Shown here piece by piece: positions 6,001-51,000 of a DNA stretch of 64,000 bases (positions are counted from its first letter, which is position 1; each line of letters begins with the position of its first letter). Source of the stretch: Candidatus Aenigmatarchaeota archaeon (GTDB lineage Archaea > Aenigmatarchaeota > Aenigmatarchaeia > QMZP01 > QMZT01). A program made the position numbers. The stretch is taken from the NCBI GenBank assembly GCA_963726265.1, contig CAVSBQ010000002.1, positions 128,001-192,000 on the forward strand, in the 5' to 3' direction.

Positions 6001-9000
6001 CGATATCGTCTCTGTCACGCCCTTTATCATGGTCGCTATGAGGTTGTCCGCGACCGCGAATGCGTCGCCTAGCGGCTTGGTGCCCGCGAGCTCGAGCAGC
6101 TTCTGATTCTCGATGACGATTACGGTGTCGCATGCGTCCCTCAGGTGCAGCAGGCCGTCCTCGGCCTTCTTTATCCTGGCGCCTTCCATCTTGAACGGCA
6201 GCGTCACTGGTGCGATGACAATCGCGCCGAGCTCCTTCGCCATCTTCGCTATCGCAGGAGCGGCTCCTGTCCCGGTGCCTCCGCCCAGGCCGCACGAGAT
6301 GAACAGCAGGTCGCATCCTTTCAGAATGTCCTTAATCTGCTCCTTCGATTCTTCGGCTGCTTTTCTTCCCACGTCGGGGAAGCCGCCCGCGCCCATGCCC
6401 TTTGTCGTCTCCCTGCCTATGAGCAGCTTCTTGTGCGCCTTGGTAACCGTTAGATGCTTGGCATCCGTGTTGATGCCGACCGTGACTGCGCCCTTTATGT
6501 CCATGCCGGTGAGGCGCGTTATCGTGTTGCAGCCGCCTCCGCCGCATCCAAAAACCATTATCTTTGCCTGATACGCGTCAAAACCCTCCAATGCATCCGG
6601 ACACATACTCACACCCCCAATAAACCATTCGCCGATAAAACTAACATACTATATTTATCTATTTGTCTATCTACGTATTTAAAAATATTTGTATAGCACG
6701 CAGAAAACTTTAAAAAGCATGAAAGTATTAAATTACCATGCCTGCAGAAGAATTAAGACAGGAAAAAGTGGAAAAACCGGAGACGATGACGACAACGATA
6801 GAGGTCGAAAAAGACCTGTTTCTCAGGTTCAAGGCGTTCTGCGTCCTCAACGAGATGACGATCTCCGGCGAGATAGAGAAGCTGCTGAGGAAGCGAGTCG
6901 AGCAGATGGCCAACAAGAGCGAGTCGACGATAGTCACTAAAGAAGCAAAAGAGTAATCTGATTCAGCAAACATTTACTTTTCTTTTATTTGCAGGTATCC
7001 AAATATGAAATATGGGAGAATGAGGCTTAATCGCTACCAGTTAAAAAGTATTGAAAACTTAACTAAAGATGGCAAATCTCTGCAGCACATATCAAATATC
7101 ACCGGCATAAAAAAGACGACTATTTACTACCACACCCGAAAACTCAAAGGAAAAAGTATACAGATGCCTATCATAAGATTCGATTCGGATGAAAAGCTGG
7201 GAGAAGCCATCGGTATATTTACAGGCGACGGTAGTTTATATTTTGAGCCAGGAAGATATCACTATCAGGTTAGGGTGCATTTCGGTATAAAAAACCTGAA
7301 TTATTTGAATCATGTTAAAGATTTATTTGATGCGTCATTTGGTAAAAAATTTCTTATAAAAATGGATGGCCCTAGAAAATTTGTTTTACAGATATATTCA
7401 AAGGAAATATTTGCTTTTTTCCATGATTTTCTCGATTTCGAAAGCCGAGATAAATCAAAAAGTGTGAGTTTGAAAGAGAAATTTTTGAAAAACGAGGTCT
7501 TTGCCAAAGGTTTTCTAAGAGGTTTGCTTGACACGGATGGTACGATATCGAAAACCAAGAACGGTATAAAAATAGCCTTTTATACTTCCTCTCACAAACT
7601 AGCTCAACAGATATCGTTTTTATTGAAAATGTTTGAAATAAGACATGGTATAACATCATCCAGAAAAGGCCAATATAATGTTTATATATTGAAAAAGGAT
7701 AACAATAGAATCGTCAAACTACTAAAACCATTTAAGGGCCGGTAGATCAGCGGTAGATCGCCACCTTGGCATGGTGGAGAAACCTTGTTTCTGCAGAAAG
7801 GAAACATGGTTCCATAAGCCTCGGGTTCAAATCCCGACCGGTCCATTGCTATTTTTTCATCTGGGATGAAATAGAATAAACAATAAAAAAAAGATTGAAC
7901 TCAAATGCCCAAAGCCTTAGCAGCATGAGCAACCGGAACTTGCCTTCTTGGACTTTTTCTTGACCATGAAAATATTGCGCGTGAGCGTCTTAAAAAGATT
8001 GCCTTCGGATTCCGAACTTACGGTCTACCTGCTGTCTACCTGCCGAAGCTTCCAAGCAGGGAAATCACGGCTTCGACCGCGGAGTTGAGCATCCCGAGCA
8101 GCTTCTCCAGAAAGTTCTTCTCGCTGAATTCGATGGTTGCGGTGGTCGTGTGGGGATTGCCGGCGACGTCGTAGCAGCTGATTTCAAGCGGGTATTCGCC
8201 AGGCGCGAGCGCGAAACCGACTTCTTTCTTGCCGAAAACTTCGTCGAATGCCTGCTTAGCGTCTCCGATAGTGATGGTTACATTTTTAATGGCGGATTTC
8301 TTCACGTAGAGCGTGAGCTTCGCTTCTCCTTCGGCGTAATCCGTATCGTAATAGATGAGCGGCTCGTCGTAAACCTCGATTACCCTCGTTTCCGAAAGGT
8401 TCAGGCCGGCTGCGGCAATCTCGAACCTGACCGCCTTCGAACCTGCTGAGGCGAAAGAAACGGGGAGCGAGACGAAATAGCGGTTCTTAAGCATGAAGTT
8501 CGCCAGGTTATCCGTGCCGTCGACGTTAAGGTTGAAATGCACACTCTCCTCGGCCGCGCCTTTGTTGACGATGTAGGCGGACACGTTCTTCCGCTCGCCC
8601 GCCTTCAGGTATGCGGGCGCGGTGACGTTTTCCATGAATATTCTAAGGTCTGATTTGACCGTAAACGGAAGCGTGAGGACTTCTCCTTCGGAAGTGTATA
8701 CCACAACATCGTTCACGCCCGTCGCTCCAGGCACGAAAGAGAAGACGGTCTGGAAATCGCCGGAGGCGTCGAATTCCTCTTTCAGGTCGCCCGCCAGGAT
8801 GCCAAGCTTCGCCTGGCCGCCTGCTCCCGCGACTGATATATAAACCTTTTGCTCGTTGCCGAGCATCACGACGTCGGAATAGAGCCGCGCGGACAGCTTC
8901 TGTCCGCTGCGCGCGCTGTACTGGGTATTGACCGTCGCGTCGACCGTCTTGAACGTGAGAGACCTCGAGTTCAGGGTGAGCGGGCAGGTGAACAGCAGGT

Positions 9001-48000: not shown

Positions 48001-51000
48001 ATGACGAGGTGATAGACAGGCTGCGCGCCGGCGTCGCCTGCAAGGAAATCGAGGAGCTGCACAGGCGCATGCTCGAGAAAAGGGGCTACAAGGTCGCACA
48101 CAGCTTCGGCCACGGCATCGGCCTTTCCGTGCACGAGCCCGCGGGCGACATCCTGGAGGAAAACGCCGTCGTCACGGTCGAGCCGGGCGTTTACATAAGG
48201 GGTTTCGGCGGCTTCAGGGTGGAGGACATGATAATAATCAAGAAAAAGGGGACAGAAATACTGTCCGAAGCGATACCTGTTCTGTAGCCGTTACGCCAAA
48301 CGCTGGTTTTTTCGGGCCTTATTCGTCGGCTTCGGTGTTTTCCTTTCCGGATTCCTCGTCAGCAACAGGGAGCGATATGTGCTTTATTATTATCACGTCG
48401 CCTATGGATTCTATCATGGGGAACGGGATAATCACCCCTTTCTTGCTGCCCAGCATCTTGGAGATGTAGGACTCCTTCGCGGCGCGCACGACAAGCGAGC
48501 GTATCTTGAACCTTTTGAGGTCGCATTCGATGTCCTCGACCTTGCCGCAGAACATCCCCTTGTTCGTGAAAACGTCCTTGCCATATGTTTCCGAAATGCT
48601 GGCAACTTTTATCGCCATATACCCACCTCTTTCGCTTTTTATGGAAAATTCAGTCTGATATCTAATTTACGGACAGTGTTTATAAAGTTTCCGAATTTAA
48701 GGCGCTGATATTTAAATCACGGCGTGCAAATTCAGCCATGAGAAGGCTTTTTTCGCTCGATGCCGAAATCCTCGGCGAGGCGTGCGGCGTCTTCGCCGGC
48801 GACGGCGGCATCTACCATGCGGGCAGGAGCTACGCGCTCGAGGTAAGGTGCGCGCCTGACGACGCAGCGTATTACGAGGGCCATGTGAAGCCGCTCTTCG
48901 AGGAAGTCCTGAAGGCCAGGCTGAAAACGTGCAAAAGGTCATACCAGGGCGGCCATGCCGTATGCATCCGCTTCTGCGGGGCGCGGGCCATGAAAATTTT
49001 CCACGTCTTCCTCCAGTTCCCGCTCGGGAGGAAAGCGAACGCGCTACGCATGCCCAAGCTCGTCTTCAACAACCACGAATGCTGGAAAGCGTATGTGCGC
49101 GGCATGTTCGACTCGAGCGGCTCGCTATACCTCAGAAAAACTGCCGGAAAATACAGGAATCCCGTAATAGAAATTTCTTCGCCGTCCATCGCGCATCTGC
49201 TGCAGCTGAAGGAGATTCTGCGCGACATGGGCTTCGGCTTCTGGCTGGAAAAGGGGAACCGCAAGATACGTATCGCGGGCAGAAAGAACGTGGAAAGATT
49301 TTTTAAAGAGATAAACCCACATAATAATGCAAAACGGAAAAAGTTCGCTGAAATAATGCGGACGGGCAAATGACGCAAAACAAAAGCTGAGATGGCCGAG
49401 TGGTTAAGGCGCAATAGCTTCCGGTGATTCGCGAGGGTTCCGGAAACTGCGCAAGGTTGCTAACCTTGTGTCCGAAAGGACGCGCAGGTTCGAATCCTGC
49501 TCTCAGCGTTACTTTTTACACCATACGCTGGTCTATAGGCGTATGAGTAATTGAGTGACGCACACACTCGTCATGTCGCCTGCCATTAATGCTTTTGTTT
49601 GATTCCCTGCCTTTTTGCATACAAAGCGTATCATGATTTAGCGTGGCGCTAATACTGGACTATTACCGATTTTGCCTTTGATGGGTAAAGGCAATAAAAC
49701 GCTTTATCTGGAAAGATAGTAGATTACGATTATCACGGCGATTATTATTAAAAAGATGGTCAGTCCGATTCCGATATTAATTCCATTATAACCAGCGTCT
49801 CTCAGCACTGACATGCCGGTTGAAGATCCCAGTTGAGCTATGGAGGATCCTCCAAAATAGAACAAAACAGCTCCTAACATCAACGCCACAAATATGGTTC
49901 CGGTTACCGTCACCCAGCTCATGAATTTTAATAGCAAAAATAGTTTTAAATTACTTTGTATTGCTTAGAACCAGCGGTAAGCCCCTCTTCTTGAGCATTT
50001 CGATACGCTCTTCATGCGACAAAACCTTTGTTTTCCCCTGTTCCAAAACTTCTTTAATTTCTTTTTTGGTCCTGCCACATGCAGGGCAACTGGAATGGAC
50101 GTCTACTCTCTCCTCATGATAGACAGGTATTCGCTTCACCTTCCCGAAAGCCCGGGCGGCTTGAAAGCTGTAATAACTCTGCATTCTTGTCACGCTTATC
50201 TTCGCTTTACCGCAAAACGGACAGTCAACTTCTTCGTTAATCGAGACAGATAAATCGGTCATGCTAAATTCCCATTCCAATTAATATGGCTCCAACGAAA
50301 ATCATAACTCCGCCCACAGGACCGGAGATAGTTATTGGAACCGGAATTTTCAAGACTGCTCTCACAGGTGGAACTACTCCAACGATTTCAATCAATATCC
50401 CCAACGCGAAAAGAGTGGCTCCAATAGTTCCCATGTCATCAATACTCCCTCAGCACCATCTCTTTCTGCCTCTCGTCGACATTCGGGAATGCGCCAAGTA
50501 TATGCTTCAGCTCTTCTTTCGTCACGCCATAAAGCTTCGCCACCATCACATCAAGTTGGGCGCGCGCGAGCGCGCGGTCGCTCTCGCTCGTCACCGGCTC
50601 GACACCAGTAAGCTTCTTGAGCTCGGCGAACTCGTCGGTCATGCAAACGAGCTGAGCCACTTTCCTGACTATGGCCTCAAATTCCTTCCCAGATGACAGG
50701 CGTGGAACGGGAGTTTCCAGGAAGTTGAACATTGTCACATTTGCGCTTACTTTCTGGCGCATGAAATAGTCAAATACAAAGCTATTCGTAACACCGCATA
50801 GGAAGCACAAATGTTTTAGGTCGGGCATTTTTACTATTGCAATAGAATGTCCGCACACATATCCGGGCGGAATTACCGCCGAGATGAACGTCCTGTAATT
50901 AGTTGAACTGGCAATCAAGCGATATGCCATCCAGTAGCCTTTATGATAAATCTTTTCCGGCTTTAGGTTGGCTTCTATATCCCTTTCCAATATTTTGTAT

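Follow-up and report, generated by a model that had tools for sequence, protein, structure and literature searches.

Homing endonucleases have been described in introns, in inteins and in the genomes of phages. The archaeal intron-encoded enzymes I-DmoI and I-Tsp061I share with the two proteins described here, g174 and g216, the same fold, two LAGLIDADG halves per chain, archaeal hosts and stable-RNA genes as targets (presumed targets for g174 and g216). The known enzymes are encoded within bulge-helix-bulge (BHB) introns of rRNA genes, whereas g174 and g216 are free-standing, each with its own TATA-like box, and they and their kin lie before (among relatives also behind) a complete tRNA gene. 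Their sequence similarity to solved chains is marginal, and g174 is extended by an HTH at its N-terminus.

Phage T4 SegB and the free-standing seg/mob endonucleases represent "intronless homing". SegB reportedly likewise comes from a free-standing endonuclease gene among tRNA genes, cuts the locus of relatives that lack the endonuclease and spreads with flanking tRNA DNA (PMC2330249), a course that we propose for the present genes. SegB is a phage GIY-YIG enzyme acting in mixed infections, whereas we are dealing with LAGLIDADG proteins on archaeal chromosomes; a further difference is that here every subfamily keeps to one tRNA species, with the ORF fused end-on to the tRNA. Collaborative homing pairs a free-standing endonuclease with an ORF-less intron, as reported for F-CphI with the psbA intron and mobE with I-TevIII (PMC6083498, PMC2790892). 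The likeness lies in a free-standing endonuclease gene beside a gene with an intron at the presumed target, where the intron would protect its carrier and travel with the endonuclease gene. Their introns are group I ribozymes, whereas ours are protein-spliced BHB tRNA introns for which the link to the target is inferred, and the Ala intron lies far from the docking point. Integrative elements that target tRNA genes offer a further parallel, in that the element brings part of the tRNA and the resident part is left at the other border as a short direct repeat, here called the stump. Unlike those elements, ours have no integrase and span only about 0.8 kb, and the duplicated part is the 5' rather than the 3' part of the tRNA. 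Full-text literature searches yielded no account of free-standing LAGLIDADG genes that have radiated on chromosomes throughout a class, with one tRNA species per family.

We analysed a 64,000-nt stretch of DNA (the window) from a Candidatus Aenigmatarchaeota archaeon, in which two such genes adjoin tRNA genes (Table 1). As the genome-wide survey's note had reported, g174 overlaps tRNA-Ala(GGC) by 10 nt and g216 stops 12 nt before tRNA-Ser(GCU), and Rfam recognises both tRNAs. We consider it probable that both genes are free-standing LAGLIDADG homing-endonuclease cassettes that dock on tRNA genes across the class, with one tRNA per subfamily.

Table 1. Features of the Ala and Ser cassettes, in positions of the window
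Feature	Position	Strand	Remarks
Left end of Ala cassette	6957..7019	+	Begins directly after the stop of the upstream gene (6738-6956)
TATA-like TTTTATTT	6983-6990	+	Inside the Ala-cassette left end; candidate promoter, from sequence alone
g174, free-standing LAGLIDADG endonuclease gene (putative)	7020..7745	+	N-terminal HTH and two LAGLIDADG halves
tRNA-Ala(GGC)	7736..7845	+	Rfam 55.5 bits; exons 7736-7779 and 7818-7845
TATA-like box TTTATAAAG	48680..48688	+	Common to endonuclease-free alleles (5 empty, 8 filled loci compared)
Orphan stump TTAAGGCGC	48698..48706	+	9 nt, identical to tRNA-Ser(GCU) nt 19-27
Cassette's own TATA-like box ATATTTAAATC	48709..48719	+	Ends 18 nt 5' of the g216 ATG
g216, free-standing double-LAGLIDADG gene, tRNA-Ser(GCU) clade	48738..49373	+	Pfam match
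tRNA-Ser(GCU)	49386..49508	+	Rfam 45.1 bits; exon 1 49386-49412, exon 2 to 49508

Both proteins matched Pfam LAGLIDADG_3 (g174 at 6.9e-16), with an internal repeat visible in BLASTP. AlphaFold models showed two alpha-beta-beta-alpha-beta-beta-alpha halves in each (pLDDT 91 for g216 and 87 for g174), and each model had more than 140 LAGLIDADG structural matches in the PDB at E <= 0.001, the best being I-DmoI for g174 (TM 0.75-0.77) and I-Tsp061I for g216 (TM 0.70-0.72). Single-sequence searches against solved chains gave no match for either protein; in profile searches the E-values ranged from 2e-3 to 5e-10. The acidic residue that closes each LAGLIDADG motif is catalytic. Both proteins carry two motifs in a single chain, with both acidic residues retained in g174 and not in g216: the motifs of g174 (GDGS and DTDGT) contain both catalytic Asp, as in all five members of the Ala clade, while g216 has GDG in motif 1 and FDSSG in motif 2, where the catalytic Asp is replaced by Ser. 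Across the Ser clade motif 2 reads FDSSG in L001-L003 and FDSRG in L004, both catalytic Asp are missing from L005 and L007 (K/R and N/N), and more distant members keep D/D. Having lost the second catalytic Asp, the Ser-type protein of this genus is not a standard double-strand-cutting homing endonuclease today. Neither protein is of the WhiA type, a domesticated regulator whose two halves have both lost their catalytic residues, whose HTH is C-terminal and which nearly every member of a lineage possesses: g216 keeps motif 1 and is without an HTH, g174 keeps both Asp and has its HTH at the N-terminus, and the presence of both is patchy. Nor do the ORFs lie within an intron of the host gene: the tRNA after the ORF is complete, and Rfam found no group I intron in the window.

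The docking arrangement was examined in related genomes at the 30 best-scoring places per search, among which related genomes are not independent. Forty-three of 54 related non-self loci among these places read into the 5' end of a same-strand tRNA, the stop codon frequently falling within that tRNA; the rest comprised eight convergent on a tRNA 3' end, two without a tRNA and one uncertain. The survey had found a Ser tRNA behind ten of twelve g216 orthologues; the link holds, and the two apparent misses do not, as tRNA-Ser(GCU) directly follows the gene at 12 of 12 loci (L002-L013, 37-71% identity). All four of the closest Ala-type orthologues (L032-L035) precede tRNA-Ala(GGC), again as it had claimed. 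Its proposal of tRNA-specific, lineage-wide families is also borne out by a tree of 53 LAGLIDADG proteins, in which a first clade (12 rows, SH-aLRT 100) brought together the genes linked to Ser(GCU) and a second (5 rows, SH-aLRT 99) those linked to Ala(GGC); further clades were associated with tRNAs for Gln, Pro, Gly, Arg, Asp, Cys, Leu or Glu. Matches to the g216 query were present in 141 of 371 genomes and to the g174 query in 99 of 371. As a background, only ORFs of at least 150 aa were counted in this genome, and 6 of 1589 had a same-strand tRNA 5' end within -80 to +40 nt of the stop; three of the six were all three of the free-standing LAGLIDADG genes, and two others resembled shadow ORFs. 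The third cassette runs into a tRNA-iMet gene that is interrupted by an intron after nt 7, and it carries a perfect 12-nt stump of spliced nt 1-12, located 5 nt before the ATG. Together these observations support a class-wide LAGLIDADG radiation with each subfamily tied to one tRNA species.

The Ala cassette is recently mobile. Two congeners, G349 and G350, have no cassette at this site, and at the left end the sister genome of G351, G349, has an unrelated 63-nt spacer instead (the two sisters share 86-93% identity at the Ser locus, G000 standing at 68-81%). Between G000 and G351 the ORF was 92.7% identical, the left end 97.9% (47 of 48 nt at 6957-7004) and the tRNA with its intron 99.1%, against 82.9-86.3% for the flanks (83-86% for the flanking genes beside the left end), a difference with a Fisher p of 7e-12; dS was 0.29 for the cassette ORF versus 0.88 for ftsZ. 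Filled and empty alleles thus exist at this site, with an element younger than its flanks. The GC content of the cassette was 33% in both G000 and G351 (32.8% for g174, against 51.8% for this genome), dN/dS of g174 versus G351 was 0.11, and in-frame stops were observed in two of four other members of the family. Judged from these sequences, the Ala cassette (6957-7845) is young and of horizontal origin, and it is probably active to this day. The g174 ORF has two possible starts, 7005 and 7020, of which 7020 is the right one because in G351 the upstream ATG meets a stop after two codons. The final 10 nt of the gene are nt 1-10 of tRNA-Ala, whose nt 8-10 form the TAG stop. The tRNA has a TTGGCAT anticodon loop (GGC), the G3:U70 pair and a 38-nt intron (7780-7817) in the variable loop after mature nt 44, placed from the identity of the exons to the genes of G349, G350 and G351. 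These four congeneric genomes have identical tRNA-Ala exons and three different intron positions, and the sole position common to two lineages came with the cassette. No stump was detectable for this cassette. About 45 nt separate the tRNA intron from the docking point, leaving the idea of an intron at the target unsupported for Ala.

A different layout was observed at the Ser locus. The genome-wide survey had described both cassettes as occupying the gap between promoter and tRNA, which is apt for Ala; the Ser cassette lies between a stump of the tRNA 5' part and a complete tRNA. The remnant that the survey had flagged as tRNA-Ser nt 19-27 is confirmed by the sequence match, though it measures only 9 nt: it ends exactly where the tRNA-Ser intron begins, is kept at the left border of the cassette in eight genomes, and gave p values of 0-0.025 in a shuffle test at four loci, with the longer similarity further 5' not significant (L005, p 0.59). 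The upstream block containing it is conserved as reported, in eight genomes rather than six, and the length of its first spacer varies, being N9 here and not N13. In endonuclease-free alleles the first TATA-like box lies 13-42 nt 5' of the tRNA-Ser 5' end. The second, the cassette's own, is kept as ATATTTAAAYC in six of eight filled loci, with variant forms in L007 and L008; under archaeal promoter geometry, its spacing to the ATG predicts a leaderless mRNA. The GC content of g216 is 55.2% (genome 51.8%). Comparison with the intron-free orthologue in G349 placed a 40-nt intron at about 49413-49452, with an uncertainty of up to 4 nt since GCGC occurs at either end. The tRNA has an anticodon arm CAAGG-TTGCTAA-CCTTG (GCU), a long variable arm and G73. 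Default ARAGORN misses both tRNAs of the window because their introns are non-canonical. From its sequence, the Ser layout looks as if an element with a fresh 5' part had inserted itself into the tRNA gene where the intron lies.

The Ser cassette is old, vertically inherited and under purifying selection. Five empty alleles of the same family share the upstream PRC-barrel gene and the TATA box with the filled loci, and the identity of the cassette tracks that of its flanks, as expected of vertical descent, with no sign of recent transfer in this comparison. All 13 Ser-type ORFs were intact, with dN/dS of 0.06-0.27 (0.057 at dS 0.6). All five Ser-type loci that retain both Asp (L006, L008-L011) carry an intron at nt 27-30, and at the three fully readable loci that lack it (L002, L005, L007) one Asp or both are gone; in L012 the motif-2 Asp persists beside an intron-free tRNA, motif 1 being cut off by the contig end. 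The nt 27-30 intron was present in 8 of 14 cassette-bearing versus 2 of 38 cassette-free tRNA-Ser(GCU) genes (Fisher p 1.4e-4, uncorrected for kinship). At Ser, then, the border of the cassette falls on the intron site, and the intron is present or absent in step with the catalytic residues; Ala shows no such coincidence. These Ser-clade data (5/5; 8/14 versus 2/38), and the transfer of the Ala cassette with its intron, would fit collaborative homing (PMC6083498, PMC2790892).

We propose that the putative enzyme recognises conserved DNA of its own tRNA gene in a cassette-free allele and cuts it, and that repair would then copy the cassette along with the adjoining tRNA sequence and the intron. 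Function of the tRNA would be preserved, as the end of the cassette falls precisely at a complete tRNA copy or a few bases into it. That copy could be released from a co-transcript by RNase P or be transcribed from an AT-rich, promoter-like box that the final codons of the ORF contain. Runs of T6 inside both ORFs could stop archaeal RNA polymerase, which argues against efficient co-transcription with the tRNA. A search of RNA runs returned none that contains this DNA. The Ser cassette (48698-49508) would have entered the tRNA-Ser gene at nt 27/28, leaving the resident 5' part as the stump, and the intron at the same spot in the travelling tRNA copy would disrupt the target of the enzyme itself. 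The Ser enzyme of this genus has since lost one active site and is still kept by purifying selection; it may now serve as a nickase or a DNA-binding protein.

We regard it as unlikely that these are domesticated, non-mobile LAGLIDADG proteins, DNA-binding (WhiA-like) or RNA-binding (maturase-like), kept by the host to aid expression or processing of the adjoining intron-bearing tRNA. The Ser clade does show strong purifying selection, vertical descent and repeated Asp loss with intact ORFs, so that for these genes a host-kept function fits as well as a selfish one; WhiA (TM 0.71) and the bI3 maturase are among the top structural matches of the g216 model, and g174-type proteins have an extra HTH domain. 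Such a host role sits poorly, however, with the patchy distribution (141 and 99 of 371 genomes for g216 and g174), with close relatives whose empty sites have an intact and equally intron-bearing tRNA, and with cassettes that adjoin intron-free tRNAs (L002, L007, L012). The Ala cassette moreover has a foreign GC content and postdates its flanks, the family includes pseudogenes, and the Rfam search of the window returned no group I intron.

Far less probable is a giant intron or split tRNA, in which the stump would be a true 5' exon and the ORF would lie within a BHB intron of about 0.7 kb, as in the rRNA introns encoding I-DmoI or I-PorI. The stump does end at the tRNA intron position, where the cassette starts, and LAGLIDADG ORFs do occur within BHB introns of archaea (PMC6125680). 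Yet the tRNA after the ORF is complete, its own 5' acceptor strand pairing with the 3' end, the stump comprises only nt 19-27 and therefore cannot supply an acceptor strand, and the Ala locus has no stump at all. The tight packing of small genomes, and nothing further, speaks for a chance neighbourhood or annotation artefact; that reading, to which we give almost no credence, is refuted by the docking counts, as all three free-standing LAGLIDADG genes here and 51 of 54 related loci abut a tRNA, against the background of 6 in 1589 ORFs. Docking by putative homing-endonuclease cassettes remains our preferred reading.

Why archaeal tRNA genes, above all those of DPANN and Thermoproteales, have introns in so many odd places, and how these introns move, has long been a puzzle. 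If the intron link holds, it would provide a testable mechanism for such introns and their movement, and the window offers a natural experiment in four congeners with identical tRNA-Ala exons and differing introns. More tentatively, as a possibility that we rate somewhat below even, tRNA-targeting endonuclease cassettes may be a chief cause of the fragmentation of tRNA genes in this group. Every invasion would then bring a tRNA copy whose BHB intron, placed at the target of the enzyme, serves as a self-immunity patch, and would leave a resident stump, with intron and stump remaining once the endonuclease gene decays or is deleted. This would account for the non-canonical intron positions and their fast turnover (three positions in one tRNA-Ala within one genus), as well as for short orphan 5' copies before cassette-free tRNA-Ser genes. 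The families also form a ready set of compact putative nucleases or nickases with predictable, conserved target sequences.

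The source genome (G000; 1.13 Mb in 4 contigs, 88% complete) contains three free-standing LAGLIDADG genes, and each of them ends at a tRNA gene. Two of these, g174 at tRNA-Ala(GGC) and g216 at tRNA-Ser(GCU), lie in the window, and the dockings claimed for them in the genome-wide survey's note were reproduced: the g174 ORF overlaps its tRNA by 10 nt and 12 nt separate the end of the g216 ORF from its tRNA. The second of the two candidate starts of g174 was taken as the real one because the upstream ATG in genome G351 meets a stop after two codons. Rfam identified three intron-bearing tRNAs in the window, all of which were missed by ARAGORN at default settings, which reported only a tRNA-Gly(CCC) there. 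Both proteins are members of LAGLIDADG_3 with a mutual identity of 27%, and their models are confident single-chain two-domain LAGLIDADG folds (pLDDT 87 for g174 and 91 for g216), with an additional three-helix HTH at the N-terminus of g174. The closest solved structures were I-Tsp061I, I-DmoI, intein endonuclease domains, I-AniI, the bI3 maturase and WhiA; single-sequence searches of the PDB with the two proteins returned no match.

Features of the docked LAGLIDADG genes and related loci in G000 (plain coordinates count along the window, which is C2:128001-192000; C2, contig coordinates outside the window)
Feature	Position	Strand	Remark
g174 ORF	7005/7020-7745		Ala cassette
tRNA-Ala(GGC)	7736-7845		intron-bearing
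tRNA, anticodon CAU	39442-39570	+	58-nt intron at canonical position; no adjoining LAGLIDADG gene
TATA-like box of the Ser cassette, ATATTTAAA	starts 48709		
g216 ORF	48738-49373		Ser cassette (locus L001)
tRNA-Ser(GCU)	49386-49508		intron-bearing
PurD (GARS) ORF	60459-62783	-	774 aa
LAGLIDADG_3 match in PurD	61260-61415		weak
Third free-standing LAGLIDADG gene	C2:418640-419224		locus L125, to 419295; reads into tRNA-iMet(CAU)
LAGLIDADG_3 matches	C2:847998-848489		two, within an 888-aa open frame; intein-type endonuclease

Among the 1589 ORFs of at least 150 aa in all six frames of G000, only six have a same-strand tRNA start within -80 to +40 nt of their stop, and the three free-standing LAGLIDADG genes account for three of these. 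Two others, which look like shadow ORFs, had no match to Pfam or to the LAGLIDADG profile. Two further LAGLIDADG-matching places in the genome fall within long ORFs and have the look of inteins. The PurD ORF carries about 470 aa inserted between GARS_A and GARS_C as well as the weak match, and probably contains an intein whose endonuclease domain has decayed.

Across the class, g216 found roughly 230 matches in 141 of 371 genomes (E <= 1e-5) and g174 in 99 of 371 (E <= 1e-8). Comparison of the 30 top-scoring places per search covered 54 non-self loci, with L052, L059 and a second listing of L005 left out as repeats and L057 left out for lying within a 1525-aa ORF. A same-strand tRNA was observed at the 3' end of the ORF in 43 of the 54 loci (38 by an acceptor/T-arm finder, 2 by Rfam and 3 by eye) and is probable in one more, L023. 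In eight loci a convergent tRNA meets the ORF 3' end with its own 3' end, and two (L029, L053) had no tRNA. The stop codon in most same-strand loci lies within the tRNA, either in the acceptor stem or as the D-loop TAA, and at L013 it lies in the anticodon loop.

The identities of these tRNAs were assigned by explicit stem-loop reading and by eye, leaving 13 without a call, although L035 was subsequently assigned to Ala GGC by eye; brute-force deletion of single introns followed by ARAGORN gave ambiguous identities and was dropped. In a tree of 53 LAGLIDADG proteins, with three rows shorter than 140 aa omitted, the Ser(GCU)-linked genes formed one clade (12 rows, SH-aLRT 100) and the Ala(GGC)-linked genes a separate one (5 rows, SH-aLRT 99). 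Four Gln-linked genes formed a third clade (SH-aLRT 85), two of them read by eye and one, L022, only plausibly Gln(UUG). The remaining members are linked to Pro, Gly, Arg, Asp, Cys, Leu or Glu tRNAs. The expected tRNA follows 12 of 12 Ser-type orthologues, including the multi-intron tRNAs of L005, L006 and L010 read by eye, and 4 of 4 Ala-type orthologues, in agreement with the claim that each family keeps to one tRNA species. The wider proposal of lineage-wide, tRNA-specific cassettes in the gap between promoter and tRNA holds for the tRNA-specific clades, but not for the position of the Ser cassette, which lies within the tRNA gene.

The site is empty in five genomes belonging to the family (G343, G344, G332, G346, G335), which share the upstream PRC-barrel gene of the filled loci, followed by TTATAAAG (four genomes) or TTATAAAT (G332) as a TATA-like box and by tRNA-Ser(GCU) with no ORF. 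The order in eight filled loci is TTATAAAG, 8-47 nt, (T)TAAGGCGC, NN, a second TATA-like box, 5-20 nt and ATG, the second box being ATATTTAAAYC in six of the eight and variant in L007 and L008. TTAAGGCGC equals nt 19-27 of tRNA-Ser, and the tRNA intron begins right behind nt 27. This stump, a short orphan tRNA copy at the left border of the cassette, matched better than shuffles in four loci (p 0-0.025); its similarity extended no further 5', and a longer stump in L005 was not significant (p 0.59). We read the stump as a probable remnant of the 5' part of the resident tRNA. A promoter, ORF and fresh tRNA 5' part would have entered at nt 27/28, displacing the resident 5' part. Plausibly, repair was one-sided: distant genomes have no homology beyond the tRNA gene, and the far side would have been closed by end joining, leaving the stump behind.

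The identity of the Ser cassette falls between those of both flanking genes in every genome pair, as expected of vertical inheritance, and its GC equals that of the host. Its ORF is under purifying selection, with dN/dS of 0.057 at a dS of 0.6 and of 0.18-0.27 in deeper pairs. We take the Ser cassette to be an old element that has descended vertically. Within four DNA runs, a single weak joint 48576->49386 in a contig of one run (28 nt on the shorter side, intervening letters unread) may represent a cassette-free relative, and one intron-free tRNA-Ser form was seen; neither was counted as evidence. The variable arm of tRNA-Ser(GCU) in L005 (G333) and L080 (G344) was observed to contain an insert of about 45 nt repeated two or three times in tandem, with another intron in the T-loop.

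The iMet cassette (GC 26%) shows the anatomy of the Ser cassette in a fresh state. The functional copy of tRNA-iMet has an intron after nt 7, and its spliced nt 1-12 recur as a perfect 12-nt stump that follows TTTATAAAA and is separated from the ATG by 5 nt.

The Ala cassette, by contrast with the Ser cassette, is young, and it has moved. Congeners G349 and G350 are empty, with a homologue of the upstream gene followed by tRNA-Ala(GGC) across a spacer of 63 nt and about 100 nt, respectively, and no ORF between. Identities at the Ser locus (86-93% for G349 versus G351, 68-81% for G000 versus either) make G351 the sister of the empty G349, although it has the cassette in common with G000. Identity between G000 and G351 was 82.9% in ftsZ, 83.2% in the intergenic region preceding the upstream gene, 86.3% in the upstream gene, 97.9% at the left end of the cassette, 92.7% in its ORF, 99.1% in tRNA-Ala with its intron and 51% in the DNA directly downstream (cassette versus flanks, Fisher p 7e-12). 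Synonymous divergence was 0.29 in the cassette ORF versus 0.88 in ftsZ, and the Ser-type ORF of this pair is just 72% identical. GC content is 33% for the cassette in either genome, compared with 52% for the G000 genome. The unit that moved begins with the base following the stop codon of the upstream gene and extends to the tRNA 3' end, and because the downstream DNA is unrelated we infer a right-hand crossover in the 28-nt 3' exon. No significant stump was found (p 0.37). Both catalytic Asp residues of g174 are kept (dN/dS 0.11), and in-frame stops in two of four relatives fit the invasion-decay cycle expected of such elements; the dN/dS of L033/L034 and the dS of the short upstream gene were invalid through frame problems.

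The exons of tRNA-Ala(GGC) are identical in four congeners (the window copy, L060, L061 and L062), but G000 and G351 have the intron behind nt 44, G349 has one of 73 nt at 37/38 and G350 has one of 28 nt at 32/33. A single genus thus shows turnover of intron position, and the nt-44 intron common to G000 and G351 implies that the cassette brought its own intron along.

An association between active site and tRNA intron was observed for the Ser clade in loci L001-L011 (L012 is without its 5' part). The residues at the catalytic positions of motifs 1 and 2 are D/D in L006, L008, L009, L010 and L011, D/S in L001-L003, D/R in L004, K/R in L005 and N/N in L007. All five D/D loci have a tRNA intron at linear nt 27-30, and the three fully readable loci with none there (L002, L005, L007) have each lost at least one Asp; the L004 intron lies 6 nt more 5'. 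Cassette-free tRNA-Ser(GCU) genes had the nt-27 intron in 2 of 8 cases within the family and 0 of 30 outside it, the latter from 32 places after one Ser(GGA) was dropped and one with a different LAGLIDADG ORF (G266) was set apart. The intron is thus present in 8 of 14 cassette-bearing versus 2 of 38 cassette-free genes (Fisher p 1.4e-4, kinship not corrected for), as expected if it interrupts the site that the enzyme itself targets, the arrangement seen in collaborative homing. No such association was found for the Ala cassette. By family and fold g216 is a LAGLIDADG protein, but its active site is degenerate, and with these refinements of position and catalytic state the survey's interpretation is supported.

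In the set-apart locus (L101, G266:C21:1-1080), a different complete LAGLIDADG ORF with motifs SEG and DGDG lies directly before tRNA-Ser(GCU). It ends in ...ATGCTGAGGTAA and the tRNA starts with GCTGAGGT, followed by an intron at 8/9, so that the final codons of the ORF repeat the first 8 nt of the tRNA. In four cassette-free tRNA-Ser(GCU) genes (L115 in G281, L116 in G167, L120 in G283, L089 in G335), a short second copy of the 5' acceptor strand (GCTGGGG, GCTGGGA or GCTGAGT) precedes the true 5' end by 9-19 nt, and an 8/9 intron is also present in three of the four. These copies may be footprints of lost cassettes.

Two readings of how the docked tRNA is made are possible, both built on general archaeal promoter and terminator rules. 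The tRNA could be co-transcribed from the cassette promoter and released by RNase P, a cut that would strip the mRNA of its stop codon where the stop lies in the tRNA. It could also be transcribed from a promoter within the final codons of the ORF, where GAAATAAT is present at -36..-29 relative to the tRNA-Ser start in the window and CACATAATAAT at about -41..-31 in L004, L007 and L008. T6 runs inside the g174 and g216 ORFs favour the promoter within the final codons.

Our literature searches, together with parts of PMC6125680, yielded no account of tRNA-docked LAGLIDADG genes in archaea; the nearest analogues they gave are T4 SegB (PMC2330249) and collaborative homing (PMC2790892, PMC6083498). 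The tRNA-docked cassettes are a variant of a known element type, and they offer a link to the origin of tRNA introns that can be tested and could prove important.
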